From positions 1-35,229 of the forward strand of contig JAISDM010000173.1 of NCBI GenBank assembly GCA_031264885.1: a stretch of 35,229 nucleotides of DNA, read 5' to 3'. Origin of the DNA: Peptococcaceae bacterium (GTDB lineage: Bacteria; Bacillota; Peptococcia; DRI-13; UBA5745). Position numbers and translations under genes: made by a program. Below are positions 2,688 through 27,790 of this stretch, in pieces; the stretch's first letter is position 1; each line of letters begins with the position of its first letter. Below the pieces are notes generated by a model. That model had not been told where the DNA came from. It made no database searches and saw only the letters and a program-made list of their open reading frames with translations.

Positions 2688-3641
2688 TTATTTCAGCGTC
2701 TTCTTGAAATAATCCACAACGGCGGTTACGTCATAGCCGTACTTCTTGCGCTGTTCCGGGCCGCTGCCGAATCCGGCGTATACCTGCGGAATCCCCAGCC
2801 GCTTGAACGTCTTGGGAACCACCTTATTGTCCACGAAGAAATCGGATATGGTACTGGCCAGCCCACCGTACATCAGATGATCCTCCAGAACCAGCACATT
2901 CCCGGTCTCATCGACGCACTTTTTGATCAGTTCCTCATCCACAGGCTTGATGCAGTACATATCCGCCACACGCACATCAATGCCCTCGCCTTTCAGGATC
3001 TCGGCGGCGTCATAAGCCTCCCCCACCATCTCCCCATGGCAGAAGATGGTGGCGTCCTTGCCCTCTCTGGCAATCGCGCCTCTGCCGATGCCGAAACTCC
3101 GCGCGTCTTGCTCATACATTACCCGGTCCTTCTTGCCTTCAGCCAGACGCATGAACATGGGACCCTGATGCTCCATGCTCAGGATAAGGATATCCCGGAT
3201 CATCAAAGGATCGCTGATAGAGAACACCGTCATATTCACAAAGGATTTCATAATGGCGATGTCTTCCATCGCGTTGTGGGTGGAACCGCCGCCGGAGGTC
3301 AAACCGCCGCCGGTGCCGATGATGCGCACATTCAGGTTCTGATAGCAGATATCCGTGCGCACCTGTTCGGTGGCCCGCATGGAAAGGAACGGGATCATGC
3401 CCATGACGATGCAGATATTGCCTTCCAGCGCCAGCCCGGCAGCCACGCCCAGGCAATTCGCCTCCGCGATGCCCACATCCACGAAGCGGTCAGGAAATTC
3501 TTTCTTATAGCCGCCCAGCGCCCCGCCGATATCCGGGGTCAACACCCACAAATTATCGTGTTTCGCTCCCAATTCAAGAACCGTGTCGCCAATGACGCTC
3601 CGTCCGGAAAAGAAATCCCCGAAATTCAGTGTGATTGCCAT
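2688..3641 (-). CDS. Transketolase family protein, C-terminal (pyrimidine-binding) subunit
   Basis: 317 aa. It has VDVGIAEANCLGVAAGLA and GGGSTHNAMEDIAIM motifs typical of the transketolase Pyr/C-terminal half. The start overlaps the preceding stop by 1 nt (TAATG). Confidence 0.9.
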   Translation of the reverse strand: MAITLNFGDFFSGRSVIGDTVLELGAKHDNLWVLTPDIGGALGGYKKEFPDRFVDVGIAEANCLGVAAGLALEGNICIVMGMIPFLSMRATEQVRTDICYQNLNVRIIGTGGGLTSGGGSTHNAMEDIAIMKSFVNMTVFSISDPLMIRDILILSMEHQGPMFMRLAEGKKDRVMYEQDARSFGIGRGAIAREGKDATIFCHGEMVGEAYDAAEILKGEGIDVRVADMYCIKPVDEELIKKCVDETGNVLVLEDHLMYGGLASTISDFFVDNKVVPKTFKRLGIPQVYAGFGSGPEQRKKYGYDVTAVVDYFKKTLK

Positions 3642-4504
3642 TATTTTGCACCTCTTTCCTTATCCCACGCGTCGTTTACATCCTTCAGCGCCTTGTTCAT
3701 ATCCTCTTCGCTGAGCATACCCGCGTGCCAGCCGATGTTCCTCTCCATGAACGACACGCCCTTGCCCTTGACGGTATTGGCCACAATCGCCTGAGGCTTA
3801 TCGGTTTCATTCGGCTTCTTCAAATGATCCAAAGCGTTTACGATTTCTTCCATATTATGACCGTCGATTTCCGTCACGTCCCAGCCAAAAGCCTTCCATT
3901 TGTCCGGATAGGGATCCATCTTCATGGATTCCTCAGAGAAAGAAGTCATCATCTGTTTGTTTCTGTCTATGACGCCGATTAAGTTCCCGAGATCTTTGGC
4001 GTGAGCCGCCATCGCGGCCTCCCAGATAGAACCCTCGCAGGTTTCGCCGTCGCCCATGTAGCAGAATACCCTGTGATTCTGTTTCTTTTGTTTGGCCGAA
4101 ATCGCCATGCCCACCGCGATGGAGAGCCCGTGCCCCAGGGAGCCCGAGGAGGTCTCCACCCCCGGCAGCCGCACCTTGCACGGATGCATGCCATACGCGC
4201 TGTCCAGCTTGCCATAGGTCTTCACAATGTCGTCATAATTGAAAAAGCCCTTATACGACATAGCGGTATACATCGCCATCGCGCCGTGACCCTTGCTCAG
4301 TACAAACCGGTCTCTTGTGGGCAGCGCGATATCGGACGAGTCCACGTTCAGCCCGTAATTATAAATCGCGATCATTAAATCGGTCATGGACAGATCGCCC
4401 CCGATATGCAGCACCCCTCCGTAAGTGCCGCAGAGCGTGAGCAATTTGACGCGCATATCGTGAGCCAGTTCCTTCAGATGATAAATTTCCTGTTGCGTTG
4501 CCAT
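3641..4504 (-). CDS. Transketolase family protein, N-terminal (ThDP-binding) subunit
   Basis: 287 aa. Motifs are SKGHGAMAMY, GSLGHGLSIAVGMA and the ThDP/metal motif GDGETCEGSIWEAAMAAHAKDLGNLIGVIDRN. The ribosome-binding site is AAAGGAGG. Confidence 0.9.
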   Translation of the reverse strand: MATQQEIYHLKELAHDMRVKLLTLCGTYGGVLHIGGDLSMTDLMIAIYNYGLNVDSSDIALPTRDRFVLSKGHGAMAMYTAMSYKGFFNYDDIVKTYGKLDSAYGMHPCKVRLPGVETSSGSLGHGLSIAVGMAISAKQKKQNHRVFCYMGDGETCEGSIWEAAMAAHAKDLGNLIGVIDRNKQMMTSFSEESMKMDPYPDKWKAFGWDVTEIDGHNMEEIVNALDHLKKPNETDKPQAIVANTVKGKGVSFMERNIGWHAGMLSEEDMNKALKDVNDAWDKERGAK

Positions 4505-4551: not shown

Positions 4552-5601
4552 CTACTCAAGATCCGGATTGCATTTGACCAGAATCTTGGGGTATTTGCCC
4601 GTCATATGAGCGTCAAAAGCCGCCGGAGCGTCGTCCAGGTCAAACACCTTTGAGGTCATATCGTCCAAGTCCAGTCTCCCGATGACCTGAGCGGTACGGC
4701 TAAACGTATATGGGGACACAAAGATGCCGGTCATGGTGACTTCCTTCATGTACAGCATATCCCACATATTCACCGGCATATTGTAATCTCTCGCGTACTG
4801 CGCCACATAAATCAGATTGGCGTAAGGCGCCGCCAGGGCTTGCATCGTCTCCGCCGATTTGGGAACCCCCGAGACCTCAAACAGAATGTCAAAACCGCGT
4901 CCGCCCGTAATCTTCAGCGCTTCCTCCTTGAGATCCTGAGACAAAGGATCAATCGTATGCTTCGCGCCGTACTTGACCGCGATATCCCTTCTGGCGGCGA
5001 TGGGCTCGCTGATGGTCAAATTCGCCGCGCCGTAAAGATTGGCCAGCTGCAGCGTCAAGAGACCGATGGGGCCGCCGCCCAGCACGATGACGTTTTGCCC
5101 GAACTTAATATTGGATTTGTCCATGGCGCGGACAGCGATGGATACCGGTTCCAGAATACATCCGGTCTTCAGCGATACATCGTCCGGCAGCTTCACCGCC
5201 TGCTTCTCATGCCAGATCAGGTATTCGGCCATTCCCGGTTCCCCGCCGCCGTGCCGGCAGAACTGCTCCATGCCGTTGGTGCAATAATAGCAAGTCCCGC
5301 AGGTACTCCTGAAGTTCCCGGATACCCGGTCGCCCACTTTGAATCCGTTGATGTCCGCCTTCGGCCCGACCTCAGCCACCACGCCGGAGATTTCATGACC
5401 CATACCGAAGGGAGCGGGCCTGCCAAAGATACCCTCCACAGAATGGGGATCCGATCCGCAGATGGCGCAATAAGCCACCTTGATCAGAATTTCACCCTCA
5501 TTGAGTTTCCTCAAAGGCATATCGCAGACTTCCACAATCCCCTTCTTCGCCGGGTCCGGATCCTTCAAACTGCCGATCCTTGTCGTCATAACAACCTTCA
5601 T
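4552..5601 (-). CDS. Zinc-dependent alcohol/polyol dehydrogenase (MDR family, sorbitol/threonine-DH-like)
   Basis: 349 aa. Catalytic Zn motifs are CAICGSDPH and GHEISGVV. The structural Zn cysteines are CGTCYYCTNGMEQFC. The Rossmann motif is VLGGGPIG. Confidence 0.85.
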   Translation of the reverse strand: MKVVMTTRIGSLKDPDPAKKGIVEVCDMPLRKLNEGEILIKVAYCAICGSDPHSVEGIFGRPAPFGMGHEISGVVAEVGPKADINGFKVGDRVSGNFRSTCGTCYYCTNGMEQFCRHGGGEPGMAEYLIWHEKQAVKLPDDVSLKTGCILEPVSIAVRAMDKSNIKFGQNVIVLGGGPIGLLTLQLANLYGAANLTISEPIAARRDIAVKYGAKHTIDPLSQDLKEEALKITGGRGFDILFEVSGVPKSAETMQALAAPYANLIYVAQYARDYNMPVNMWDMLYMKEVTMTGIFVSPYTFSRTAQVIGRLDLDDMTSKVFDLDDAPAAFDAHMTGKYPKILVKCNPDLE

Positions 5602-5621: not shown

Positions 5622-6059
5622 TTAATCCCACAACTCAATCATATTGCCGTCCGGATCCTTAAAAAAGATCCAATGCCCCGGTTCAGTAGGCATGCGCTTC
5701 TTCGGCGGGAAAAAAAACTCGATTCCGTCCGCCTTCATCCGCTCATACAGCTCCGGAATGCTCTCCACCTTAAAGGCCAAGTGATGATAGCCCGTCTTCT
5801 GCCATTCGGCGGGACCCGCTTTTTCCACATTTGAGAATTGAAAAACCTCCAGCACAACGCCGTCTTCCGACTCAAGCATCGCCATATCCGAATAGACGCC
5901 CTCCGGCTGGCGGTACAGCGCATCGCTGTCGCTGATGAATTCCTTGGGGAACCGGTGCGCCATATTCTTCTTAAATCCAAAATACTTCGTGTAAAAATCC
6001 GCGGTTCTGTCAAGATCGGACACAGTCAGGCCAAAGTGCATAAACGTGGTTTTCGCCAT
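5622..6059 (-). CDS. VOC-family protein (glyoxalase/dioxygenase/epimerase fold)
   Basis: MAKTTFMHFGLTVSDLDRTADFY...GYHHLAFKV...FKDPDGNMIELWD is a typical paired beta-alpha-beta-beta-beta VOC signature. I shortened the track ORF (to 6173) because GGAGGA sits 6 nt before the ATG at 6059. The longer form would overlap the MFS gene by 112 nt. Confidence 0.75.
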   Translation of the reverse strand: MAKTTFMHFGLTVSDLDRTADFYTKYFGFKKNMAHRFPKEFISDSDALYRQPEGVYSDMAMLESEDGVVLEVFQFSNVEKAGPAEWQKTGYHHLAFKVESIPELYERMKADGIEFFFPPKKRMPTEPGHWIFFKDPDGNMIELWD

Positions 6060-6061
6060 TT

Positions 6062-7270
6062 TCATTCCTCCTTTTTGAAACTCTGTTTTCTTCCATCGAG
6101 CAAGTGATACGCCAATCCCCCGAGCAGCGCCATAAAAAATCCGGTGAGAAACAGCCCGCGGAACCCGATCCAAGGGATCAGAAGTCCGGCGATCATCGGC
6201 CCCGTCGCGCTGCTCAGATCAATCGAGAAGTAATAGGTGGCGTTCGCGAGCCCCAGCCGGCGCCTGGGTACGATTGAATTCGCGAAAGCCATGGTACCGA
6301 TCTGTATCGTTCCAAAGCCCATTCCGAACACAGCCGCCGCCAGAAGCAGCGTCGCCGCGTGATAACTCTGGCTTAATATCAGAAAACCGGCCGAATACAC
6401 CACAAACGCGGGATACAAAATAAAATTGGGCCCCCTCCTGTCATACAGCTTGCTGACAAAAGGTCTGCTGATCAGAACCACCACCGCGTTCACGATAAAG
6501 TAATAAGCCGCCGCTTCCGTGAGATTGTTCCGGCTGGCAAAGACAGCCATAAACGTCATGATGGCCGCGTTAAACAGCATCAGCAGCATGGTGATCAGAC
6601 CCACCGGAACGACCCTCCGCTCAATGAAGCGATCCAAAAACAGCGTCCCGTCCTCTTCTGGGCGATCCGCCCCCGCCTGTTCTAACGGCGGCCGCTCCAG
6701 ACCCTTCAGCCTCAGAAAAGGCAGGAAGATCATATTGACCGCGGGCAGAACCGCGCCAAAGACAAACACAGCGCCATAATTCCCGCTGTTGGCCAGGTTC
6801 AGGCCCACGAAAGGCCCCAGGGCCGAGGACAGCACCTGAACCAGAGAATAATATCCCAGCCCCTCGCCCCTGCGCGCCTCCGGTATGATATTGGAGATAA
6901 TCGTCAGGTTCGTGTTGGACGTCATGCCATAGGAGACCCCGTGCAGGAACCGGATCACACACAGCAGCACCGCGCTTCCCGCCGCGAAATACCCCATCGT
7001 GACCGTCACAAGCAAAACAAGCCCCACGGACAGCATCCGCTTATATCCCACATAGTTCACAGCCGAAGCCGCGAACAGGCGCGCCGACAGAATCCCCGCG
7101 ATGAACAGCCCGGCCACGAAGCCGGCCTGGGCTTCGGACATATGAAACACATCCAGCGCGTACTTGGGCATAATGGTCAGAAGCGAGAAAAAATTGAGAC
7201 TCATGAAGAAATTGCTGCATGTGATCAGACCGTATTCCCGCGTCCAGAGCTTTTCCCTGATATCCGTCAT
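6062..7270 (-). CDS. MFS transporter
   Basis: Hydrophobic 12-TM-like ORF. The ATG at 7270 (MTDIREKLWTREYG...) is preferred over the track TTG at 7297. The stop TGA overlaps the first in-frame ATG of the VOC ORF (ATGA). Confidence 0.85.
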   Translation of the reverse strand: MTDIREKLWTREYGLITCSNFFMSLNFFSLLTIMPKYALDVFHMSEAQAGFVAGLFIAGILSARLFAASAVNYVGYKRMLSVGLVLLVTVTMGYFAAGSAVLLCVIRFLHGVSYGMTSNTNLTIISNIIPEARRGEGLGYYSLVQVLSSALGPFVGLNLANSGNYGAVFVFGAVLPAVNMIFLPFLRLKGLERPPLEQAGADRPEEDGTLFLDRFIERRVVPVGLITMLLMLFNAAIMTFMAVFASRNNLTEAAAYYFIVNAVVVLISRPFVSKLYDRRGPNFILYPAFVVYSAGFLILSQSYHAATLLLAAAVFGMGFGTIQIGTMAFANSIVPRRRLGLANATYYFSIDLSSATGPMIAGLLIPWIGFRGLFLTGFFMALLGGLAYHLLDGRKQSFKKEE

Positions 7271-7289
7271 AGGCCCGCCGTTTTTCCCT

Positions 7290-8855
7290 TCAATCAAAGC
7301 AGCCCATTCTCCCGGGCGTAAAGATCCGCGCGTCCATCAGCTTCAAATCCTTGCTGACAATGGGCTTAAAGCCCATTTTGCCCAGCACGTCTTTTTCCAG
7401 ATCCATGCCCGGAGCGATTTCAGTCAGCAGCAAGCCTTCCTTCGTCAGCTTGAATACGGCGCGCTCCGTGACAAAGACCGCTTCCCTGCCGTCCGCCATG
7501 GCGAGCTGGCCGCTGTACGTAATCTGAGCGACTTTATCCACGATTTTGGAAATGCTGCCTTCCTGATCGATCACCATCTTGCCGTCCTTGACAGACCCCT
7601 TGAATCCGGACGCGGTAAAAAACATCACAAAAACGGTCTTTTTGCTGCATTGGCTGATGTCCATGAATCCGCCCTGCCCGGAGGGACGCCCGCTCATCAG
7701 GCTGACGTTCACATTGCCTGTCTTGTCAACCTCCGCCGCTCCCAGGAACGCGATGTCCAGTCCGCCTCCATGGTAGAAGTCGAACATGGTGGGATGCGCC
7801 ACGAAGGAGGACGCGTTCAGCGACGCGCCAAAGTCGCTGGGCGGCGTGGGAACGCCTCCGAATGTGCCCAGCTCCAAAGTGAATGTAATCCTGTCCGCGA
7901 CGTTCTCGGTCTCCGCCACCAGGCCTATGCCCGCGCCGACGCCGACCCCCACGTTCACAATCGCCCCCGGACGCAGCTCATAGAGCGCCCGCCGGCACAC
8001 AATATCATCCGGCGTCAACACATCCTTGGGCGGCGGCGCGCTGGCGGCGGGCCGTCTCAATTCGCCGCTGTAATAGGGATTATGCACCTGACCCAATGTC
8101 TGCCGGTGGGTTTCCTCCGGTTTGTCCGCGATCACGACGGCGTCCACAATCTCGCCGGGCACCGCCACATCCTTCGCCTTCAGGGTTCCCCTGGCCGCGA
8201 CCCTCTTGACCTGGGCGATGACCTTGCCGCCGCGGGCCTTGGCGGCCAGCGCCGTCTCCATAATCTCCAGCTTCAGGGCCTCTTCCTCAATGGTGAGATT
8301 CCCGTCCTCGTCCCCGGTGGTCACCCGGATAAACGCCGCGTTGATGGGATGCGCCTTATAAAACAGCCATTCCTCCCCGTCAATCTCCATCAGCCGGACG
8401 ATGTCCTCCTTGGCGGCGGCGCTCATCTTCCCCCCGTCCTGCCTGGGATCGATATAAGTACCCATGCCGATCTTCGTCAAAAGCCCCGGCTGCCTGGCCG
8501 CGCTGGTCCGGTACAGCTGCTGCAGCACCCCCTGGGGCAGGGAATACCCCTCCACCTCGCAGGCCATGATCATCTCCTGTATGGGCCGGCAGGTCATCGG
8601 ATGCGAAGCGACGTAACGCTTCAGCATACCGGGCTGGGCGAATTTGGAATCGCCCATGGTCGGATGAACGGGGATCCCGTGCCCGCACCCCGCGAAAACC
8701 GTCAGCCCCTTGGGATGTCCGGTCTCTTTGTAACGCTCCGCCAAACCGATGGACAGATATTCCGGATACCCCACCATACCGCCTGACACGATCGCGATGG
8801 TATCTCCATCGCTGATCAGCTCCATAGCCTCCCGAAGCCCCATTATTTTGCTCAA
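7290..8855 (-). CDS. Class I acyl-CoA:carboxylate CoA-transferase, propionate CoA-transferase (Pct)-like
   Basis: 521 aa. By eye it is collinear with Clostridium propionicum Pct as I recall it: SDGDT..SGG, IDPRQDGGK, EDIVRLMEIDGEEWLFYKA, VKRVAARGTL..VPGEIVD.VV and the catalytic-Glu region TLELGTFGG. The start is TTG, 6 nt after AAGGAGGG. Confidence 0.9.
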   Translation of the reverse strand: MSKIMGLREAMELISDGDTIAIVSGGMVGYPEYLSIGLAERYKETGHPKGLTVFAGCGHGIPVHPTMGDSKFAQPGMLKRYVASHPMTCRPIQEMIMACEVEGYSLPQGVLQQLYRTSAARQPGLLTKIGMGTYIDPRQDGGKMSAAAKEDIVRLMEIDGEEWLFYKAHPINAAFIRVTTGDEDGNLTIEEEALKLEIMETALAAKARGGKVIAQVKRVAARGTLKAKDVAVPGEIVDAVVIADKPEETHRQTLGQVHNPYYSGELRRPAASAPPPKDVLTPDDIVCRRALYELRPGAIVNVGVGVGAGIGLVAETENVADRITFTLELGTFGGVPTPPSDFGASLNASSFVAHPTMFDFYHGGGLDIAFLGAAEVDKTGNVNVSLMSGRPSGQGGFMDISQCSKKTVFVMFFTASGFKGSVKDGKMVIDQEGSISKIVDKVAQITYSGQLAMADGREAVFVTERAVFKLTKEGLLLTEIAPGMDLEKDVLGKMGFKPIVSKDLKLMDARIFTPGRMGCFD

Positions 8856-8897
8856 ACAAATCCCTCCTTCGCTTACTAATACTTACGTCCGCCCGGG

Positions 8898-10217
8898 CTA
8901 TTCCTCGAATTTCCTCAAGCCCTGGCCTTCCATCCAAGTATCCAGCTGATCCATAAAGCGGCGTTCGTCCAAATCGGTCCGGTCGCCGGGCTGGGAGCCT
9001 TCATAATGCATGACCCGGACGCCGATCTCGCTCAATTGCAGACCCTGTTCCTTCCGGGTAAGGGTGCAGCCCACGCCGCCCCGGTACAGCGGCATCAGCG
9101 CGCCGTTTACCTTGAAGCCCTTGGCGAAATCCGTAATGGCGTTCAGGCGGAAATACTCATCGTCTTTAAACCGGTGCCCCCGGGCTTCCGTCAGCGCGGC
9201 CCGGACAGCGTCCTCCCGGGTTCTGATCTCCGTGCCCGCCGGCCTGGGAATCATCTCTCTGCGGTCCATGGTGCCGTCCGGTTTCAATTCAATCGGCCCG
9301 GCCATCATATGGCTGTATTGCGAACCGACGCAAACCGCCCCGTACTGCTCCATATAGCGGTAATATCTCAAGTAATGCCAGGGGGAGGGATGCGCCTCCA
9401 TCCAGCGGTAACGCTCATTCCCTACGGCCGCGATATGGTTGTCGATCCGCCATTGCAGCTCGTCCGAGAAGGATTTCCAGAAGTCCACCAGTTCGTCCGG
9501 CGCCACCTTGGTCAGCCCTCCCAGCGTGTAGAAGGAATACAGATCCTTCTGCCCCAGGGGGGAGGGGATATTCGTCATGGACTGGGTGACCTTCAGCGCG
9601 TATTCCCCCACCTGCCTGTGCGCCTTGATCGATTCGACAAATTTCTCGTCGTCGAACTCGATTCCGAAGATTCTTTCAATATCGTCAATCACCTTAAGGG
9701 TATTATACACCCGCTCCTCGATCATTTCCACTTCTCTTTGCGGATCCCGCTCGCCCAGGTACATCATCCAGTCGCCGCCCCAGCGGGGAATCGGGGAGAA
9801 GTCCATGCACTGCTGTCCCCGTTTGGTATGCTGGTCGCAGGGATCCGAGAACGGAACGCACATATCCCTCAGCGGGAACGGGCTGTTATCCAGCTGATAA
9901 CCCAGGAACTGAACCCCCCAGCAATTCTGCACATATCCGCAAATCTCACGGCCCCAGCCGCGGATCTCAGAAGCCAATCTGGCCTTGCGGGCAAAGGAAT
10001 CGCTCACACTGGCCATCATGGCGCCCACCGGATTGTCCTCGATGATATTCAGACCCTTGAAGCTCTCGCGCCAATCCACCTCGCCCGTATTGCCGTGCGC
10101 CAGCAGCAGATTCTCCTGCTCCGCCGATTCGTCGATGGATTTCTGCCATCTCGCCCTCAAAGCCTTGGCCCTTCCCCAGATCTCCAGCGGACGGGTCTCC
10201 CATAATTGTTTGCTCAT
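8898..10217 (-). CDS. Benzoyl-CoA reductase / 2-hydroxyacyl-CoA dehydratase family (HGD-D), large subunit
   Basis: Family-typical motifs are EICGYVQNCWG, NIPSPLG, RYRWMEAHPSPW...YGAVCVGSQYSH, GVGCTL and the C-terminal HYEGSQPGDRTDLDERRF. The ATG at 10217 (8 nt after GGAGG) is preferred. The track ATG at 10232 directly abuts the stop of the upstream ATPase. Confidence 0.8.
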   Translation of the reverse strand: MSKQLWETRPLEIWGRAKALRARWQKSIDESAEQENLLLAHGNTGEVDWRESFKGLNIIEDNPVGAMMASVSDSFARKARLASEIRGWGREICGYVQNCWGVQFLGYQLDNSPFPLRDMCVPFSDPCDQHTKRGQQCMDFSPIPRWGGDWMMYLGERDPQREVEMIEERVYNTLKVIDDIERIFGIEFDDEKFVESIKAHRQVGEYALKVTQSMTNIPSPLGQKDLYSFYTLGGLTKVAPDELVDFWKSFSDELQWRIDNHIAAVGNERYRWMEAHPSPWHYLRYYRYMEQYGAVCVGSQYSHMMAGPIELKPDGTMDRREMIPRPAGTEIRTREDAVRAALTEARGHRFKDDEYFRLNAITDFAKGFKVNGALMPLYRGGVGCTLTRKEQGLQLSEIGVRVMHYEGSQPGDRTDLDERRFMDQLDTWMEGQGLRKFEE

Positions 10218-10232
10218 TTTTTTAACCTCCAT

Positions 10233-11009
10233 TCACCTATCGCTCGCTATGACCGCCGCGCCTACGGCACAGCCGTACTGCGCCTCTTCCGGAATGAGGA
10301 AACGGATTCCGGAACGGGCCTTCAATCCATCGACCACCGCAGTGTTTCGGGTCATCCCGCCGATAAAAACCGTGGTCTCTTTCGCAGGCGGAATCTTATC
10401 CTTCAGAATCGCGTTGATCCGGCAAATCACCGTCTGAACCACCGCGCCCGCCACTTCCTTCTTGTGTACGTTCCGGTTCAGCAGTTCCAGCGCGTCCATC
10501 TCCGTAAAAACAGCGCAGCCGTCGTTCACCGTTTTGCCGCCCGCGGCATCTGGCGCCAGCGCGCTCATCTCCGCCAGGGTCATCCCCAGCCTTCTGCCCA
10601 TGTATTTCAGCATAATGCCCAAACCCGCCGAACATTTCTGGTTCAGCACCACTTCCTCGATCTTATCCCCTTCACCCAGGGTCGCCACACGCACCTGATC
10701 GGCGCCCGCGTCCACCACCGAAGTAGCGTTGGGATAGAAGTACCGGGCGGCGCGGGCATCCGCCACAACCTCCACCACACGGTCCCCCGCGAAGGCGACA
10801 TCGTACTTGCCCGCTCCGGTAGCCACCGTTTTGCTCACATCCGCAGCCTGGATCCCGGCCTTGTTCAAAGTCTCTTCCCACAGCTTTTCAGCCGCCCGAC
10901 CGCGGCCGGCCCCTCCGGCCGGCCCCTCGCTTTTGGCCGCGATCTTGCCGTCTTTCAGGATCACAATCTTGATATTTTCCAAACCCACGTCAACGCCGGC
11001 TGTAATCAT
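10233..11009 (-). CDS. BcrAD/BadFG-family ATPase (activator-type), divergent copy (ATPase-2)
   Basis: 258 aa with an ASKHA fold. Motifs are GVDVGLENIK, the cluster-ligand cysteines NQKCSAGLG and NDGCAVFTE, and FIGGMTRN. The phosphate-2 motif is degenerate (VVDAGADQ instead of DxGGQD) and the xCHxxGA motif is missing. The ribosome-binding site GGAGGA lies 7 nt upstream. Confidence 0.85.
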   Translation of the reverse strand: MITAGVDVGLENIKIVILKDGKIAAKSEGPAGGAGRGRAAEKLWEETLNKAGIQAADVSKTVATGAGKYDVAFAGDRVVEVVADARAARYFYPNATSVVDAGADQVRVATLGEGDKIEEVVLNQKCSAGLGIMLKYMGRRLGMTLAEMSALAPDAAGGKTVNDGCAVFTEMDALELLNRNVHKKEVAGAVVQTVICRINAILKDKIPPAKETTVFIGGMTRNTAVVDGLKARSGIRFLIPEEAQYGCAVGAAVIASDR

Positions 11010-11057
11010 TTTTTATTCCTCCTAATCCTCTGATTTCCTCAAAACAAACATCGGTCC

Positions 11058-11243
11058 CCGCGTCTTATCCCCTCTTCCGCAGGGGCGGCGCGGCATTCCC
11101 GCGCCTTATCCCTTTCCGTAGGGGCGGCATTTTGCCGCTCGGGACCGTCCGGAAACGCGCCCTAATTATTACCGGACTTGTCTATCACCCGTCATTCCAG
11201 GTTTGTTTATCCCCCCGTCATTCCGGGCTTGTCCCGGAATCCA
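11058..11243. repeat. Intergenic modular palindromic repeat, locus R2 (inside the BCR/HAD locus)
   Basis: A tandemly duplicated unit of about 40 nt (CTTATCCCCTCTTCCGCAGGGGCGGC... and CTTATCCCTTTCCGTAGGGGCGGCATTTTGCCGC) is followed by the tail GGGACCGTCCGGAAAC. A partial B module and a full B module CCGTCATTCCGGGCTTGTCCCGGAATCC (11216-11242) follow. Confidence 0.8.
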
Positions 11244-11310
11244 AAAATGACAAGATATGATAGCTTCCAGACAGCCTGGCCCGCCCCGGGGATCCCGCCG
11301 CCCCCGCGCC

Positions 11311-12447
11311 TTACGCCTTGCTCCACCCGTACAGCCGGGTCATTCCCGGCTTGATCATATTGATCAGCGCCTCGACGCCCAGCTTCGTTTCCTCATAAGG
11401 CATCGTGCTGTCCCGCTCAAACGTATGATACGGGATATTCCTTTCCCGGAGCAATTTCCACACAGCGTACATATCCGTACCGTGAGGGTGACAGTAAATC
11501 TGCTTGGCGATGATCACACCGTCGGCCTGATAATCCTCAAACAGCTCATAAATACGCTCCGGCCGCCGGCGCCACACATTGTCCTTCAAAGCGCTGTGGG
11601 GCCTTCCCAGATACCGCAGCCCGATGGCCATCAGACGGTCTTTCTGAGGAATCACATTGTTCCAGATATAGGAACTTCCATTGTCCAGCTCATCGATCAC
11701 AATATTGGCGCCCAGGGATTCCACCAGCTTCTCCAGTTCCGCGTCGTAGGTCTCGCTTCCCACCAGCATCAGGCGCACACAGTCGCCGTGAGGCTCGCGG
11801 CTCTCCAGCTCCGGGATCAGTTTTTCCAGTATTTTATTGGCTTCCGCCTTGTCCATGACCTGACATGCCAGAACGATCTCCATCGCCTCAGACCCCAAGA
11901 TGACAGAACGGTCAAACCTTCTCAGCTCATAAACCTGACGCAGCAAATTGCGGTTTGTGTTGTAGACCTCTATGGCGTGATCCAGCGCCTCATCCGTGAT
12001 GGTCTTGCCGAGCCACTCCTCCAGGCGCGTCTTAAACACCCCCATCTCCGAACGCATCACATCCTTGGATTTGCGGCCGTCGGGATAATCGGGCACAAAG
12101 AAATAGTGGCTGAACAGTCCCGGGAAATTGACCAGGGTCGTGGAACACGCGTTGTGCCACCACTGACAGCTTTCAATATCGATCAGGCCGTCCACATAAT
12201 CATACCTGCCGTTCATAAACTGATTCAGCATGTCCCGGGTAGGATAACAGTTGCCGTACATCTGGCGGTCCGTGTTATCATCCGCCTCATGCCGGGCCAG
12301 AATACGGATGGGCAGCGCTCCCGCGGCGTAAAGCAATTCTTCCGGGAAATAAACGTCATAATATCCCACCACTTTGCCGCCTGTGCGCTTCTTCCAATCT
12401 TTGGCGTATTCATGGCGTCCGTCTAATATCTCTTTCAAATTCTCCAT
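11311..12447 (-). CDS. Benzoyl-CoA reductase / 2-hydroxyacyl-CoA dehydratase family (HGD-D), small subunit
   Basis: 378 aa. The N-terminus is typical of the family (GGKVVGYYDVYFPEELLYAAGALP). Conserved Cys positions are ESCQWWHNAC and IYCHPHGTD. The ribosome-binding site GGAGGG lies 7 nt upstream. Confidence 0.8.
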   Translation of the reverse strand: MENLKEILDGRHEYAKDWKKRTGGKVVGYYDVYFPEELLYAAGALPIRILARHEADDNTDRQMYGNCYPTRDMLNQFMNGRYDYVDGLIDIESCQWWHNACSTTLVNFPGLFSHYFFVPDYPDGRKSKDVMRSEMGVFKTRLEEWLGKTITDEALDHAIEVYNTNRNLLRQVYELRRFDRSVILGSEAMEIVLACQVMDKAEANKILEKLIPELESREPHGDCVRLMLVGSETYDAELEKLVESLGANIVIDELDNGSSYIWNNVIPQKDRLMAIGLRYLGRPHSALKDNVWRRRPERIYELFEDYQADGVIIAKQIYCHPHGTDMYAVWKLLRERNIPYHTFERDSTMPYEETKLGVEALINMIKPGMTRLYGWSKA

Positions 12448-12494
12448 TTAGTTTCCCTCCAAAAATATCATTTCGGTTTCTCCTGGAACTCGAA

Positions 12495-13373
12495 TCAAGC
12501 CAGAAGCGCCGCGCCGATGGCGCCGGCCAGCTGAGGATCGTACTCGCTGGTGAGCGCGGCGGCGTCCAGCTCCCTCTCCAGCCTCTTGGTCACGCCTTTG
12601 TTCTTCGCCAAACCGCCCGTGAACGCCAGCTCCTTATACACCTTAATGTCCCCCACATCCAGAGGCGCCAGCTTGCCCACCGTACTCAATATCCTCCAGG
12701 CCACCGCAAAGAGATGCGCGGCGTAAACATCGTTCTCGGTGTAGGCCGCCTCCCTGTAGCCCTCGCGCAGCAAGCCCACCGTCTCCGTGTTGGCAAAGGC
12801 GTAACAGGTGGTGCTGACCGGTTCGGGGTCATTCTCAACCTGAAGGGATTTCTCCCCGATCTCCTGAATGGGTACCTGCAGAATATCACAGATGACCTCG
12901 ATGTCCCTTCCCATTCCGGCGGCACATTTATCATTGGTCTTAAAATCCCGGATCCTGTCCCACTCAAACAGCCGGATCGCTTTGCATGTCTGGCCGCCCA
13001 GATCCACAACCGTGGTCACGGAAGGCCCGAACATAAAGCGGGCGCCCTTGCCATGACATTGGATCTCATCCAGGGTTTTTGCCGCGTACCCGGCGTTCCT
13101 GCTGCCAAACCCGGTGGCCGCCACACTGCCGATGTCCTTCAGCGTCATTCCCGAAGCGCCCATCGCCCCTTGAATCACCGCGTCGGCAGCTTCCCGAAAA
13201 TCCGCCCCCGTGGCAATATTGGCATAACCGAACAGTTGGCCGTCACACAAGATGGCCGCCTGAGCGCTGGTTGTGCCGATATCGACTCCGGCCGTTATTT
13301 TTTTTGCCTTTTTCCAGTCGATCTTCTCAGACACCCACTTGGATTCCGGCCATTTCCAAAACTCCTGCGTCAT
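12495..13373 (-). CDS. BcrAD/BadFG-family ATPase (activator-type), canonical copy (ATPase-1)
   Basis: 292 aa. All HgdC-type motifs are present: GVDIGTTS, EIQCHGKGA, VVDLGGQTCK, NDKCAAGMGR, STTCYAFANTE, FTGGLAKN and AGAIGAAL. It has an N-terminal extension of about 25 aa. The ribosome-binding site is GAGGAGG. Confidence 0.85.
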   Translation of the reverse strand: MTQEFWKWPESKWVSEKIDWKKAKKITAGVDIGTTSAQAAILCDGQLFGYANIATGADFREAADAVIQGAMGASGMTLKDIGSVAATGFGSRNAGYAAKTLDEIQCHGKGARFMFGPSVTTVVDLGGQTCKAIRLFEWDRIRDFKTNDKCAAGMGRDIEVICDILQVPIQEIGEKSLQVENDPEPVSTTCYAFANTETVGLLREGYREAAYTENDVYAAHLFAVAWRILSTVGKLAPLDVGDIKVYKELAFTGGLAKNKGVTKRLERELDAAALTSEYDPQLAGAIGAALLA

Positions 13374-13510
13374 TACAGATACCTCCTCACAGAGTAGTAA
13401 AAAGATTGTGAAATCTATGACACTTCTAATATTTAATTATAGTAATTGTATGGACTGATTTTTATATACAGACAGCAGCTTTTAGAAGCGCAATCTGTCC
13501 TGGTTCTGTT

Positions 13511-14941
13511 CTATACCATTTTTTTCGCCAGATTTCCGACTAATTCGACAGCGTCGAATTCCTTCGCGGTCAGCGCCATGGCGTAACAGAAACGCATACA
13601 GCCGCCGAATTCGCCCCTTTTTGTAAAAATATTTCCCGGCGCCAGCAAAATATGATGCCGCATCGCCTCCGCGAACAGGGCCTCCGCGGATATTTTCCCG
13701 GGCATCGCCACCCATAGATAGGATCCGCCCTCAGGCCGGTACACCGCCGTTCCCTCGGGAAAACTCCGCTCAATGGCGTCGGCCAGCTGTTCACAGTTCT
13801 TTTGATAGACGCGTCTCAGGTTCTTTAAATAGATATGACATTTGCCGGAAGCTATGTACTGGGCGACCGCTTCCTGGCTGGCCCGCATAATCGCGAACGA
13901 ACCCATCCCGTACACATTTCTGATTTTCATGGTATGCTTTCCGGCCGCCACCCATCCCAGCCGGTACCCCGGGCTGATGGTTTTGGAGTAGCTGCTGACA
14001 TAAATCACCGACTCCGGCAGCAGACTCTTCAGCGTAGGCAGCATGCTCCCAAACCTCAGAGGCCCCATCACATCGTCTTCCACCACGATGATGTCGTATT
14101 CCTGGCATATTTCCAAAAGCCTATGCCGGTTCTCCAGCGGCATCAGCGACCCCGTCGGGTTTTGATAATTCGGGGTAACCAATATACACGCGGGCCTTAC
14201 GCCCGTCTCCAGCAGCAATTGCAATTTGTCCACATTCAAGCCGTAAGGCGGCAGCGTCTCAATCTCCATCGAGATCAAGCGCAGCTGCTGAATCAGGCTG
14301 AAGTAGCCGGGGAACCCCGGGCTCTCCATAATCACCAGGTCGCCCGGATTCGTCAGGGCGCTCAATACACTGTGTACGCCTTCCCACGCGCCCGTCGTGT
14401 TAAAAAGCTCCGCCTCAGACACCAGCGTGCCGGAGAATTGGAACATATACCTCGCCGTCATTTTTTCCACCAGACTCGTCGTCTCCGAGGTGGCGGAAGA
14501 AAAATCATAGGTATTGAGCTCCTGAGGCTTCGCCCGGATAATCCGCGTCAGGCACTTGCTCAGCTCCTCATTGGGGAAATACTGATTCGGCGGCGAGAAC
14601 GCCCCCAACTGAATCAAATCCTGGTCACGCCGGATGCTGTTCTTGAAATGCTGCACCTGTATATCGGGAAGAACAGGCTGAATCTGAAGCGGATGGGGAT
14701 AAAACGACGTCTCCTTGGGGGCGGATATTTCCTTCACCGCGTTCAGAATAAAACCCTTCCGCTCCTTGCTCCTTACGAGACCCTTGCGTTCCAGTCTGCA
14801 ATAAGCGTCGTAAACGGTCACATTGCTCACACCCAGATTCTGCGACATCGCCCGAATCGACGGCAGGAAATCACCCGGGCACAGATTGCCCGTGTACACG
14901 CTTTTCATAATAAATTCTATAACGGCCTCATATTTTCTCAT
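13511..14941 (-). CDS. MocR/GabR-type regulator (GntR winged-helix + class I aminotransferase-like PLP domain)
   Basis: 476 aa. The N-terminal GntR HTH is LPSIRAMSQNLGVSNVTVYDAYCRLERKGLV. The PLP-lysine motif is SYSKTISPGYRLGW. GC content is lower than in neighbouring genes. Confidence 0.85.
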   Translation of the reverse strand: MRKYEAVIEFIMKSVYTGNLCPGDFLPSIRAMSQNLGVSNVTVYDAYCRLERKGLVRSKERKGFILNAVKEISAPKETSFYPHPLQIQPVLPDIQVQHFKNSIRRDQDLIQLGAFSPPNQYFPNEELSKCLTRIIRAKPQELNTYDFSSATSETTSLVEKMTARYMFQFSGTLVSEAELFNTTGAWEGVHSVLSALTNPGDLVIMESPGFPGYFSLIQQLRLISMEIETLPPYGLNVDKLQLLLETGVRPACILVTPNYQNPTGSLMPLENRHRLLEICQEYDIIVVEDDVMGPLRFGSMLPTLKSLLPESVIYVSSYSKTISPGYRLGWVAAGKHTMKIRNVYGMGSFAIMRASQEAVAQYIASGKCHIYLKNLRRVYQKNCEQLADAIERSFPEGTAVYRPEGGSYLWVAMPGKISAEALFAEAMRHHILLAPGNIFTKRGEFGGCMRFCYAMALTAKEFDAVELVGNLAKKMV

Positions 14942-14956
14942 GCTTTTACCTCAACA

Positions 14957-15075
14957 CCCGGGCGGCAGAACGCCGCCCCTGCGGTACCGCGAACAACGCG
15001 TCCGCATGGGCTTCAACGCATCTGTAGGGGCGGCATCCTGCCGCCCGCCTCCGACAGACGCAATTCCCAAATTCC
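14957..15075. repeat. Intergenic modular palindromic repeat, locus R3
   Basis: GGGCGGCAGAACGCCGCCCCTGCGGTACCGCGAACAACGCGTCC...CATCTGTAGGGGCGGCATCCTGCCGCCCGCCTCCGACAGACGC. It fills almost the whole 137-bp space between the pfk stop and the MocR start. Confidence 0.8.
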
Positions 15076-15078
15076 CCG

Positions 15079-16326
15079 TCATCCCTTTTTCACGGGCGCC
15101 TTTTTTAGCTGGGCAAATCTGGGGAGACCGTTCACATTTTGAGGATACGACTCGCCCTGAATCAGCGGCCGCGCGTATTGAATGAACTCCTCATTCAGCC
15201 CGTGGCCCTCCTTATTGATCCATTCCCGGGGAATCGTTTTTTCTTTATTGGCGACCTCGCCCAGATCCACCAAAGTGGTTTCGCACCGGTACTCCGGCCC
15301 CCGGCCCCTCTCAAAAGCGACCATGCAATCAGACTTGCCTTCTATCGCCAGCCTCACCGCGGACTGCCCGGCCATGAACGCCTCGTTCACATCGGTGAGA
15401 GAAGCGCAGTGCGCGGCGCACCGCTGAAGGAGGCTGAATTCTATGCTTCTCAGCTTTATATTTAATTTTTGCCCGAGAATCCGGGTCAAAACAGCGGCCG
15501 CGCCGCCCAGCTGCACATGACCGAAAGCGTCTTTCCCATGCTGGTGAACGGTCATTTCAGCCACATAATTGCCTTCCTTGTCATGAATCCCCTCCGATAT
15601 GGCCACAATGACCTTGCCGGATTTTCGATACACCGCGTCCACATCCGACACAAACTTATCGATCTCAAAGGGGATTTCAGGCAAATAGATCAAGTCAGGC
15701 CCGTACCCCTCATAGGTGGCCAGCGCCGACGCGGCGGTGAGCCAGCCCGCGTTTCTGCCCATGATCTCCAATACGGTCGCCATTCCGGTGTCATACACCC
15801 GCGCGTCCAAATACACCTCCATCATCGACGTGGCGATATACTTCGCGGCGCTGCCATAGCCGGGACAGTGATCGGTTCCGTAAAGATCGTTGTCGATGGT
15901 CTTCGGCACACCCAATATACGGCACTCATAGCCGGATTTTTTCAAATACCGGCTGATCTTGCTGCATGTGTCCATAGAGTCGTTCCCGCCGTTATAAAAG
16001 AAATAACGGATATCATATTTCTGAAACACCTCCAAAAGACGCTTGCAATCCGTTTCGTCCTCCTCAAAATCCTTGAGCTTGTACCGAACCGATCCCAGCG
16101 CCGACGAAGGCGTCGTCTTTAAACGCGCGATCTCCCCCTTGTCCTCTTGAGAGATATCATAAAAATCCTCGTTCAATATGCCTTTAATCCCGTGCGCCGC
16201 GCCATAAACCCCCGTAATATCCGCCTGCGCCAGCGCCTCCGTAAAGACCCCCGCGGCGCTGGCGTTGATGACAGACGTAGGCCCGCCGGACTGTCCAAAC
16301 ATACACGCACCCTTTAAATTCCCCAT
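15079..16326 (-). CDS. pfp: 6-phosphofructokinase, pyrophosphate-dependent type likely
   Basis: 415 aa. It has GQSGGPTSVINAS, GGNDS (Asp where ATP-PFKs have GGDGS) and PKTIDNDL (Lys where ATP-PFKs have PGTIDND). The Asp/Lys pair is the established PPi-specificity signature. Confidence 0.8.
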   Translation of the reverse strand: MGNLKGACMFGQSGGPTSVINASAAGVFTEALAQADITGVYGAAHGIKGILNEDFYDISQEDKGEIARLKTTPSSALGSVRYKLKDFEEDETDCKRLLEVFQKYDIRYFFYNGGNDSMDTCSKISRYLKKSGYECRILGVPKTIDNDLYGTDHCPGYGSAAKYIATSMMEVYLDARVYDTGMATVLEIMGRNAGWLTAASALATYEGYGPDLIYLPEIPFEIDKFVSDVDAVYRKSGKVIVAISEGIHDKEGNYVAEMTVHQHGKDAFGHVQLGGAAAVLTRILGQKLNIKLRSIEFSLLQRCAAHCASLTDVNEAFMAGQSAVRLAIEGKSDCMVAFERGRGPEYRCETTLVDLGEVANKEKTIPREWINKEGHGLNEEFIQYARPLIQGESYPQNVNGLPRFAQLKKAPVKKG

Positions 16327-26695: not shown

Positions 26696-26790
26696 ACCGT
26701 CATTCCGCGCCTGCCAACGGGCGGCATCCTGCCGCCCGGAACCGTCCGAAAACGCACCCGTCCCGTCATTCCGGGCTTGTCCCGGAATCC
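26696..26790. repeat. Intergenic modular palindromic repeat, locus R5
   Basis: A partial B module is followed by GGGCGGCATCCTGCCGCCCGGAACCGTCCGAAAAC and then a full B module, CCGTCATTCCGGGCTTGTCCCGGAATCC (26763-26790). Confidence 0.8.
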
Positions 26791-27624: not shown

Positions 27625-27790
27625 CCCCCGTCATTCCGGGCTTGTCCCGGAATCCAGGTCCTTCTTTTTGTCATTCCGGATCAAGCCCGGAATAACAACA
27701 CAACGGCAAAACACCCCCCCACGGTACCGCAACAGCGCATCCGTAGGGGCGGCATCCTGCCGCCCGCCTCCGTCAAACGCGAATTTCCCC
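27625..27790. repeat. Intergenic modular palindromic repeat, locus R6
   Basis: Two B modules (27628-27656 and 27669-27694) are followed by ACGGTACCGCAACAGCGCATCCGTAGGGGCGGCATCCTGCCGCCCGCCTCCGTCAAACGC. Confidence 0.85.

Follow-up and report, generated by a model that had tools for sequence, protein, structure and literature searches.

At the two functional poles of a single family of radical enzymes (BCR/HAD) stand the class I benzoyl-CoA reductases and the 2-hydroxyacyl-CoA dehydratases. They differ in the ATPases that feed them with electrons: heterodimeric ATPase modules are the hallmark of the stoichiometric class I reductases, whereas the dehydratase activators are homodimers (PMC11971306; PMC11574389). 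Here we describe a locus that stands between these poles. It lies in a stretch of 35,229 nucleotides from a Peptococcaceae bacterium (GenBank assembly GCA_031264885.1, contig JAISDM010000173.1; "the window" hereafter), where genes for two distinct ATPases and two HGD-D family subunits are found beside a CoA-transferase gene. Judging from sequence comparisons, the four enzyme genes belong to a coherent, widespread clade that is sister to the Bzd reductases and carries an active-site signature of its own, and the encoded protein is on balance a probable transferase-fed, ATP-coupled reductase of an acyl-CoA other than benzoyl-CoA.

The closest described system is BzdNOPQ of Aromatoleum (PDB 8S02; Fuchs et al., 2025; PMC11971306). 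In BzdO, the catalytic [4Fe-4S]-OH2 cluster is ligated by Cys95, Cys128 and Cys380; Glu65 and His131 form the acid/base pair at the Fe-bound water, with Glu65 protonating the dienoyl anion; and Trp46, Tyr97, Leu302, Leu383, Tyr298 and Gln274 line the benzoyl/thioester pocket. In BzdN, an [8Fe-9S] double cubane is ligated by Cys36, Cys73, Cys100, Cys263, Cys293 and Cys327, and the stepwise loss of Fe-S sub-clusters has been proposed as the origin of new chemistry in the family (PMC11971306). The 2-hydroxyacyl-CoA dehydratases HadBC/HadI, HgdAB/C, FldBC/I and LcdAB/C with Pct, found in fermenting Clostridia, have the same folds and belong to the same superfamily, and every characterised one has a single homodimeric activator (PMC11574389). 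A further relative, the ATP-dependent tetrahydronaphthoyl-CoA reductase of strict anaerobes, is a Bzd-like four-subunit enzyme acting on a non-benzoyl acyl-CoA (PMC12016498).

The open reading frame (ORF) listing of the window gives six intact, co-directional genes on the minus strand, interrupted by one long intergenic gap:

12495-13373, minus strand: ATPase-1, BzdQ-like electron-activating ATPase subunit, 292 aa
11311-12447, minus strand: small HGD-D subunit, BzdN-like, predicted electron relay, 378 aa
11010-11310, no strand: intergenic gap of dispersed repeats resembling repetitive extragenic palindromes (REP), 301 bp
10233-11009, minus strand: ATPase-2, BzdP-like, with degenerate nucleotide-binding motifs, 258 aa
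8898-10232, minus strand: large HGD-D subunit, BzdO-like, predicted substrate-binding catalytic subunit, 444 aa
7290-8855, minus strand: class I YdiF/Pct-type acyl-CoA:carboxylate CoA-transferase, predicted substrate activator, 521 aa
6062-7297, minus strand: transporter of the major facilitator superfamily (MFS), possible carboxylate importer (PF07690, 165 bits)

The order from ATPase-1 to the CoA-transferase had been claimed in an earlier reading of the DNA letters (the sequence-only reading), and the ORF listing and Pfam both confirm it. The ATG of the large-subunit gene directly follows the ATPase-2 stop codon, and the MFS gene overlaps the CoA-transferase stop by 8 nt. For brevity we refer to the four enzyme genes as Q-, N-, P- and O-like, after their Bzd counterparts. 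An independently assembled contig of a sister strain (L034 in our set of comparison loci; Joint Genome Institute (JGI) sample 3300042643), with a small subunit 96% identical, has a MocR gene, Q, N, a 293-bp gap, P and O in the same order as the window; the arrangement is therefore not a misassembly, and an assembly error at the repeat was rejected.

Both ATPases carry PF01869 (121 bits in ATPase-1, 85 bits in ATPase-2) and both HGD-D subunits carry PF06050 (198 bits in the small, 53 bits in the large subunit), all above the gathering scores, and the two ATPases and all their orthologues keep the two bridging-cluster cysteines in NDKC and C.VF/C..F motifs, which places the set within the BCR/HAD superfamily. 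Each subunit finds its best characterised relative in the corresponding Bzd subunit. On the NCBIfam models, ATPase-1 scores 270 bits with bzdQ (cut-off 380.2), the small subunit 233 bits with bzdN (cut-off 453.8) and the large subunit 162 bits over its full length with bzdO (cut-off 448.6); all three scores are under the cut-offs, and the genuine Aromatoleum BzdN, BzdO and BzdQ reach 888, 969 and 690 bits on the same models. No bzdP model exists, and genuine BzdP matches the same generic NCBIfam models as ATPase-2. Searches against the PDB agree: the large subunit matches BzdO (8S02_A) with E = 2.7e-44 versus E = 7e-8 for HadB; the small subunit matches BzdN (8S02_B) with E = 1.8e-63, followed by MbdN (E = 4e-29) and HadC (E = 6e-21); and ATPase-1 matches MbdQ with E = 1.5e-44. 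With the genuine bzdNOPQ locus of Aromatoleum sp. CIB (L028) as the BLASTP reference, identity is 45% for Q, 34% for N, 33% for P and 29% for O, and the match of ATPase-1 spans the BzdQ-type N-terminal extension. The HadB and HadC models gave 44 bits (cut-off 750) and 107 bits (cut-off 700) with the window subunits, the small subunit scored 109 bits with BcrC and 138 bits with the double_cubane model (cut-off 350), and the large subunit scored 24.5 bits with BcrB. The suggestion in the sequence-only reading that parts of the large subunit look closer to BcrB than to LcdA thus did not survive, its nearest relative being BzdO; the recognition of two distinct ATPases and two HGD-D subunits as the inventory of a class I reductase is upheld by the one-to-one Bzd orthology.

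We analyzed the ATPases by neighbour-joining with 100 bootstraps, using the orthologues of ATPase-2 in place of the window sequence itself. The ATPase-1 clade grouped with BzdQ in 100 of 100 bootstraps and the ATPase-2 orthologues with BzdP in 82 of 100, while neither clade was placed with HadI or HgdC in a single one. On these groupings the two ATPases are an ancient Q/P pair and not duplicated dehydratase activators, which also answers the objection, raised with the initial prediction, that they might be recent paralogs of HgdC/LcdC-type activators. The two types share only about 25-30% identity and form separate orthologue groups at every locus.

The nucleotide-binding motifs of the pair are unequal. 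ATPase-1 has the canonical phosphate-1 (DIGTTS) and phosphate-2 (DLGGQ) motifs of the ASKHA fold, and HadI, HgdC, MbdQ, MbdP and the reductase of the double-cubane cluster protein (DCCP-R) likewise read D-x-G-S-T and D-x-G-G-Q; ATPase-2 instead reads DVGLEN where D.GST is expected and DAGADQ where D.GGQ is expected, and its orthologues all read D-V-G-[ILF]-[ED]-[NS] and D-x-G-A-D-Q. Since genuine BzdP of Aromatoleum sp. CIB (L028, 9343-10152) itself has a non-canonical phosphate-2 motif, DVGAEE, part of the degeneracy is a Bzd-type trait, with the loss of Ser and Thr from phosphate-1 specific to the clade under study. Given the degenerate P-like motifs, the comparison suggests that the Q-like site alone hydrolyses ATP efficiently. 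As a separate observation, DVGAEE in BzdP implies that inequality between the two ATP sites may already exist in Bzd-type reductases; we found no mention of this oddity in the paper on the BzdNO structure, whose scope is BzdNO alone.

Residue roles in the two HGD-D subunits were taken from the BzdNO structure (PMC11971306) and transferred through phmmer and family alignments. The large subunit keeps two cluster cysteines (Cys98 and Cys132), His135 (equivalent to BzdO His131) and the thioester-binding Tyr100 and Tyr306. The column of the third ligand, BzdO Cys380, is occupied by Gly386, and a cysteine, Cys389, is found three residues later at column 383 (R-G-G-V-G-C versus R-G-C-E-G-L in BzdO). 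This relocated cysteine is invariant in all 120 family members, and it may serve as the third ligand of the open-site cluster. Searched exhaustively, a set of 1.84 billion representative proteins yielded only 336 related clusters; among 79 full-length representatives the relocated cysteine is present in each of the seven clade clusters and in none of the 72 others, 69 of which have Cys at column 380. The Leu302 column is Met or variable, the Trp46 column aligns ambiguously, and columns 302, 379 and 385 are the pocket positions that vary across the family.

The small subunit keeps the proximal triad Cys67, Cys94 and Cys319 (BzdN Cys73, Cys100 and Cys327), which is invariant in the family, as well as the conserved Arg53, Arg290 and His330 of BzdN. 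The distal-cubane cysteines are gone in approximately 100 of 121 family members; the remaining 21 retain Cys263 and Cys293, and 18 of these add a cysteine at column 267, a pattern that within the locus set is found in Chloroflexi sequences. The family thus seems to span the transition from a double to a single cubane proposed in PMC11971306. The Chloroflexi N-like subunits (L006-L014, L017 and L018; for example L006, 8859-9980) retain six cysteines in all; the BzdN Cys36 column holds Glu and the Arg267 column has gained a Cys, and this could be a re-wired ligand set for a double cubane.

More than 120 homologues of the large subunit, at 57-76% identity, were found in Peptococcaceae, Oscillospiraceae, Family XIII, Lachnospiraceae, Dehalococcoidia and other Chloroflexi metagenome-assembled genomes (MAGs), from termite guts, biogas fermenters, peat, soils and aquifers. 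As far as the contigs allow, the set of four, with one orthologue of each, is found in more than 25 loci of Clostridia and Chloroflexi, with identities of 59-69% for ATPase-1 orthologues and 42-64% for ATPase-2 orthologues. In these relatives only short spacers separate the four genes, which stand in the order Q-N-O-P in Clostridia, N-O-P-Q (the bzd order) in Chloroflexi and O-Q-N-P at one locus. The interleaved order Q-N-gap-P-O is found in the window and its sister strain, and is a local rearrangement of the window lineage. A search of the literature found no published characterization of any member of the clade.

Two termite-gut Clostridia MAGs each carry two paralogous Q-N-O-P sets within about 20 kb (L003, 7903-12108 and 17064-21259; L020, 7750-12129 and 16789-18751), which indicates that the family has diversified within genomes. 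In addition, orphan O-like genes are found without N, P and Q genes of their own (L029, 10001-11323; L030, 17723-19045; L026, 10001-11326), each adjoining a transporter and an accessory enzyme, these being a protein of the family of 2,4-diacetylphloroglucinol (DAPG)/phloretin hydrolases, a URO-D protein with an HpcH aldolase, and an FAD-oxidase/electron-transfer flavoprotein. The orphans suggest that O-like proteins are interchangeable, substrate-specific catalytic subunits served by one electron-delivery module.

The CoA-transferase of the window (PF01144) aligns over residues 4-518 with residues 15-523 of Escherichia coli YdiF (2AHU) at 408 bits, and its 90% cluster is named "propionate CoA-transferase" in one source; this full-length match within the same fused class I family bears out its description as collinear with propionate CoA-transferase (Pct). 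Glu328 aligns with YdiF Glu333, which we take to be the catalytic residue and which Rangarajan and colleagues reportedly described as such in 2005. Orthologues of about 522 aa stand beside the four genes in L015 (62% identical), L021/L022, L025, L029, L031 and L033, and a 39%-identical version of the YdiF/Pct type in L003 and L019; AcetylCoA_hydro-type transferases take this place in L002 and L030, and a class III transferase with a short-chain dehydrogenase/reductase (SDR) in seven Chloroflexi loci, so that class I is the form of the Clostridia and class III that of the Chloroflexi, with the AcetylCoA_hydro type at two loci. Altogether a CoA-transferase lies within 10 kb of the enzyme genes in approximately 17 of 22 informative loci, and no PF00501 AMP-forming ligase was found in any Pfam-annotated locus. 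A CoA-transferase rather than a ligase is thus the usual neighbour and a family-wide trait, and the coupling claimed for the window holds beyond it. The linkage is less exotic than had been supposed: strict anaerobes do have CoA-transferase-fed benzoyl-CoA pathways, as with the succinyl-CoA:benzoate CoA-transferase of Geobacter.

Carboxylate-type transporters (TRAP, MFS or ABC) adjoin the set in nearly all relatives, and the other neighbours are diverse. Dehydrogenases include 2-Hacid_dh in L002 only, an Fe-dependent alcohol dehydrogenase in L020 and SDR proteins in Chloroflexi, and they do not fix the specificity. Thiolase and SDR pairs stand beside the set in L003, and a gene resembling old yellow enzyme (OYE)/dienoyl-CoA reductase in L025, and these parallel the contexts of the tetrahydronaphthoyl-CoA reductase (PMC12016498). 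Amidohydro_2 proteins are found in L025 and L031, URO-D proteins in L030, L031 and Chloroflexi, a protein of the DAPG/phloretin-hydrolase family in L029, and AcnX, RraA, HpcH and DHDPS aldolase genes in L020, L030 and L002; Amidohydro_1 is also among the neighbouring families. Sugar-type neighbours (FGGY kinase, class II aldolase, transaldolase or transketolase) occur in L026, L033 and the window, with other sugar-type enzymes recurring in L002, L026 and L033. The heterogeneity of the neighbours, the multiple paralogs per genome and the variable pocket columns argue for several substrate specificities in the family and not one, and a single substrate call from the neighbourhoods was rejected because the contexts are too heterogeneous.

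From the composition and context of the locus, the protein is on the whole somewhat more probably than otherwise a CoA-transferase-fed, ATP-coupled, low-potential Fe-S radical enzyme of the BCR/HAD family with Bzd-type organization, and net reduction is favoured because both its heterodimeric ATPase module, with one of each, and its subunit-by-subunit orthology match the stoichiometric class I reductases. The candidate ATP-driven radical dehydratase or reductase proposed from the DNA alone is supported by the same Bzd orthology and transferase linkage. In the mechanism that we infer, the MFS transporter (TRAP or ABC systems in relatives) would import a carboxylic acid, which the YdiF/Pct-type transferase would turn into its CoA thioester through Glu328 at no cost in ATP. 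The Q-like/P-like ATPase heterodimer, with one bridging [4Fe-4S] cluster, would accept an electron, presumably from reduced ferredoxin, and ATP hydrolysis would push it onto the three-cysteine [4Fe-4S] cluster of the N-like subunit; from there it would pass to the O-like subunit, whose open-site [4Fe-4S] cluster with three cysteines would reduce the thioester-activated substrate via a radical intermediate. A net two-electron reduction is the most likely outcome, and we would expect an acyl-CoA substrate that is unsaturated, hydroaromatic, aromatic or heteroaromatic but is not benzoyl-CoA.

A number of observations weigh against a transferase-fed reductase of this kind. All 120 family members have Asn (Asn67 in the window), as part of an unvarying D-N-P motif, in place of BzdO Glu65; Gln274 is replaced by Pro282, invariant in 120 homologues; and Cys389 occupies the column of the pocket residue Leu383. 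With Glu65 lost and the benzoyl pocket rebuilt, the Birch-type chemistry described for BzdO cannot simply be transferred. In the relay subunit the distal ligands Cys36, Cys263 and Cys293 of BzdN correspond to Asp31, Asp255 and Ser285, and the loss of three of six double-cubane cysteines, those with which the subunit could hold two electrons, leads us to predict a HAD-like single cluster there instead of a double cubane. Compared pairwise, ATPase-2 is nearly as close to HadI (111 bits) as to BzdP (115 bits). No ferredoxin or dienoyl-CoA hydratase gene was found in the window with Pfam, the variety of neighbours does not point to one aromatic substrate, and the combination of a dehydrogenase with a CoA-transferase also fits dehydratase pathways. 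ATP paid per electron is, moreover, costly for fermenters.

Several of these points are accommodated by a redox-neutral ketyl-radical enzyme, either a dehydratase of the 2-hydroxyacyl-CoA type or an eliminating dehydroxylase, that has retained its heterodimeric activator; a neighbouring dehydrogenase would make a hydroxy acid, the transferase would activate it, and it would be dehydrated at the O-like [4Fe-4S] cluster, with ATP needed only catalytically, for the injection of a single electron that is then recycled. A small subunit with three proximal cysteines resembles HadC, in the window and in about 100 of the 121 members (within the framework of PMC11971306), the Birch-type proton donor is absent, the context of dehydrogenase, CoA-transferase and transporter mirrors the hadA/ldhA, fldA and pct-lcd pathways, the degenerate P-like site suggests a low ATP demand, and fermenting hosts could hardly bear a stoichiometric ATP cost. 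We nonetheless regard this as rather unlikely, given that two ancient ATPases per locus are at odds with the single homodimeric activator of all characterised dehydratases, that the ATPases group with BzdQ and BzdP and never with HadI or HgdC, and that the HadB and HadC models score far below bzdO and bzdN. As for the residues, the absence of Glu65 sets the clade apart from most large subunits (Glu in 45 of the 72 other representatives, in none of the seven clade clusters) and does not point to a dehydratase in particular, the 72 carrying no names by which HAD-type sequences could be told apart; and His135, kept here, is Ala at that position in HadB (PMC11971306). At the other pole, a divergent but genuine reductase of benzoyl-CoA, or of a simple substituted benzoyl-CoA, in fermenting bacteria would account for BzdNOPQ being the best characterised relative of all four subunits and for the bzdNOPQ order of the Chloroflexi members. 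The JGI labels members as benzoyl-CoA reductase subunits, and Sewell et al. (2017; PMC5736913) called the Chloroflexi bzdNOPQ-like genes class I benzoyl-CoA reductase, on similarity and gene order alone; the Amidohydro_2, URO-D and DAPG-hydrolase neighbours could serve the metabolism of aromatic acids. Such an identity is improbable. Three subunits fall well short of the equivalog cut-offs, the catalytic subunit is only 29% identical, and the Glu65, Gln274, Leu383 and Cys380 positions are all changed. By Pfam the window has no benzoate-CoA ligase, dienoyl-CoA hydratase, Had-type dehydrogenase or ring hydrolase, whereas the genuine locus L028 has enoyl-CoA hydratase and alcohol dehydrogenase (ADH) genes downstream; the Zn-dependent ADH of the window was rejected as a Had/BzdX dehydrogenase, with 52 bits on the dearomat_had model against a cut-off of 339.

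The least credible account, to which we give hardly any weight, is that the locus consists of two independent pairs, Q with N and P with O, split by the gap, or is an assembly artefact at the repeat. It draws on the highly structured repeat region of about 300 bp that divides the four genes and on the orphan extra O-like genes of some relatives. The relatives, however, keep the four genes contiguous in each of the orders given above, in all relatives with a solved structure an N-like and an O-like protein pair into a single heterodimer (PMC11971306), the gap shows no promoter or terminator signal above background, and the independent sister contig has the same order. Separate Q+N and P+O systems were rejected on the conserved four-gene co-occurrence, and with them the proviso that ATPase-1 and the small subunit might be a pair of their own. 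We return, then, to a transferase-fed reductase as the reading to be preferred. A further step, possible but to be taken only tentatively, is that the clade with the relocated cysteine and without the Glu carries out a reaction new to the BCR/HAD family, for example an ATP-coupled radical reaction that reduces or reductively dehydroxylates hydroaromatic, heteroaromatic or sugar-derived acyl-CoAs in fermenting anaerobes of guts, digesters and the subsurface. If so, a half-site ATPase (Q active, P degenerate) and activation by CoA-transferase would together cut the ATP price that is thought to keep class I reductases out of strict anaerobes, and one orthologous group would capture the step from double-cubane to single-cubane relay subunit.

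Compared with the known systems, the window enzyme shares with Aromatoleum BzdNOPQ the four-subunit inventory with one-to-one best matches, the BzdQ N-terminal extension, the non-canonical P phosphate-2 motif, the two O-cluster cysteines, the His contacting Fe-OH2, the two Tyr and the proximal triad of N. It differs in scoring under the equivalog cut-offs, in the Glu65 to Asn and Gln274 to Pro changes, in a third Cys moved by three residues, in lacking the distal N cysteines (as do most Clostridial members) and in the P-like phosphate-1 motif without Ser and Thr; BzdNOPQ is ligase-fed, whereas the window enzyme is transferase-fed, without downstream dienoyl-CoA pathway genes and with strictly anaerobic hosts. 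Because of its equivalog scores, the loss of Glu65, the altered pocket, the incomplete six-cysteine double cubane and the pathway context, the enzyme is probably not a benzoyl-CoA reductase in the strict sense. The dehydratases resemble it in a predicted three-cysteine cluster per subunit and in their coupling to CoA-transferases, that of the acrylate pathway (LcdAB/C with Pct) being of the same class I Pct family; they differ in having one activator gene with a homodimeric product in place of two anciently diverged ATPases, and in what the active-site Glu column holds and where the third cysteine lies.

The electron-transfer subunit of the Thauera-type enzyme has, in the older literature, a single [4Fe-4S] cluster. 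Thauera-type BcrABCD and MbdONQP (PDB 9G87, 9GAI) follow the same heterotetramer plan of two ATPases and two HGD-D subunits and are far more distant, as shown by the BcrB, BcrC and MbdN scores given above and by MbdO remaining undetected; MbdP has canonical ATP motifs, unlike ATPase-2. The tetrahydronaphthoyl-CoA reductase, compared by its description and not by sequence, has OYE-type genes nearby, as in L025, and differs in that its substrate is made by a CoA ligase and its hosts are sulfate reducers (PMC12016498). The double-cubane cluster proteins (DCCP; PDB 6ENO/7YYL) with their reductase share the fold of the N-like subunit, yet they are homodimers with a six-cysteine [8Fe-9S] cluster and a homodimeric reductase, whereas the N-like subunit of the window has three of the six cysteines.

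The clade thus lies between the two poles of the family, with Bzd-type composition and orthology, HAD-like clusters in most members, the Glu lost and a probable cluster ligand moved; it is often present in several paralogous copies per genome and is usually set up for CoA esters made without ATP. The evidence so far does not prove new chemistry. Characterization of a member could reveal a new ATP-coupled radical reaction and a missing anoxic catabolic route for plant-derived or other carboxylic acids, could test whether a heterodimeric activator with one degenerate site lowers the ATP spent per electron, and could correct the routine labels "benzoyl-CoA reductase" and "2-hydroxyacyl-CoA dehydratase" in metagenomic reconstructions.

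Further genes flank the enzyme operon in the window:

5622-6173, minus strand: VOC/glyoxalase-fold protein (Pfam)
4552-5601, minus strand: Zn-dependent alcohol dehydrogenase, possible pathway partner (ADH_N and ADH_zinc_N)
3641-4504 and 2688-3641, minus strand: split transketolase, two ORFs (Pfam)
13511-14941, minus strand: MocR-type regulator (GntR and aminotransferase fold; PF00392 and PF00155), upstream of the operon

The genes downstream of the CoA-transferase, from the MFS transporter to the split transketolase, are separated by spacers of 0-47 nt, and these short distances suggest that they are co-transcribed. Orthologues of the Zn-dependent alcohol dehydrogenase, 54% identical, immediately precede the Q-like gene in L003, L004 and L019, and its other NCBIfam matches are generic. 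The MocR gene has the same position in L034 and a 49%-identical orthologue near the four genes in L020. No VOC or transketolase orthologues were found in loci L001-L020, and the association of these two with the radical enzyme is uncertain. In L033 a transaldolase, an FGGY kinase and a class II aldolase flank the set, a recurring link to sugar-phosphate enzymes. Beyond the MocR gene the window carries housekeeping genes; its G+C content is about 56% and its gene order is Clostridia-like.

The gap between the small-subunit and ATPase-2 genes sits where the gene order of the window departs from that of its relatives. It is built of short direct repeats whose motifs are found again in three further gaps between genes of the window, so that the 300-bp repeat gap noted earlier is real, at 301 bp, and is not specific to the operon. 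The motif ACAAGCCCGGAATGACGGG is present in six copies against 0.03 expected, and a second motif of about 36 nt, approximately CGGACGGTCCCGGGCGGCAGAATGCCGCCCCTACGG, in three; the sites of the repeats are 2360-2540, 11057-11232, 26715-26780 and 27627-27645, and every copy is intergenic. The repeats form hairpins, with an inverted pair at 2467-2538, and the RNA of the gap folds far more strongly than shuffled sequences (z = -4.4). An Rfam scan of positions 6000-15200 gave no match in the gap and two sub-threshold matches to miRNA families, dismissed as chance; promoter and terminator predictions were no more numerous than in shuffles, with none within the gap, and no credible small ORF was found there. 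The gap looks like a genome-wide element of the kind of REPs or miniature inverted-repeat transposable elements, and lies outside the enzyme system.

Long antisense ORFs of 389-540 aa face the real genes at 7164-8786, 9006-10205, 11257-12426 and 13835-15142, all on the plus strand; they are without family matches and are spurious products of the high G+C content and the strand composition. The VOC ORF as listed, with a TTG start, shares 111 nt with the end of the MFS gene, and an internal ATG (MKMAKTTF..., near 6065) is a likelier start, giving a protein of about 147 aa. The split transketolase consists of an N-terminal part of 287 aa and a C-terminal part of 317 aa, which overlap at 3641 and run in the same direction as the operon.

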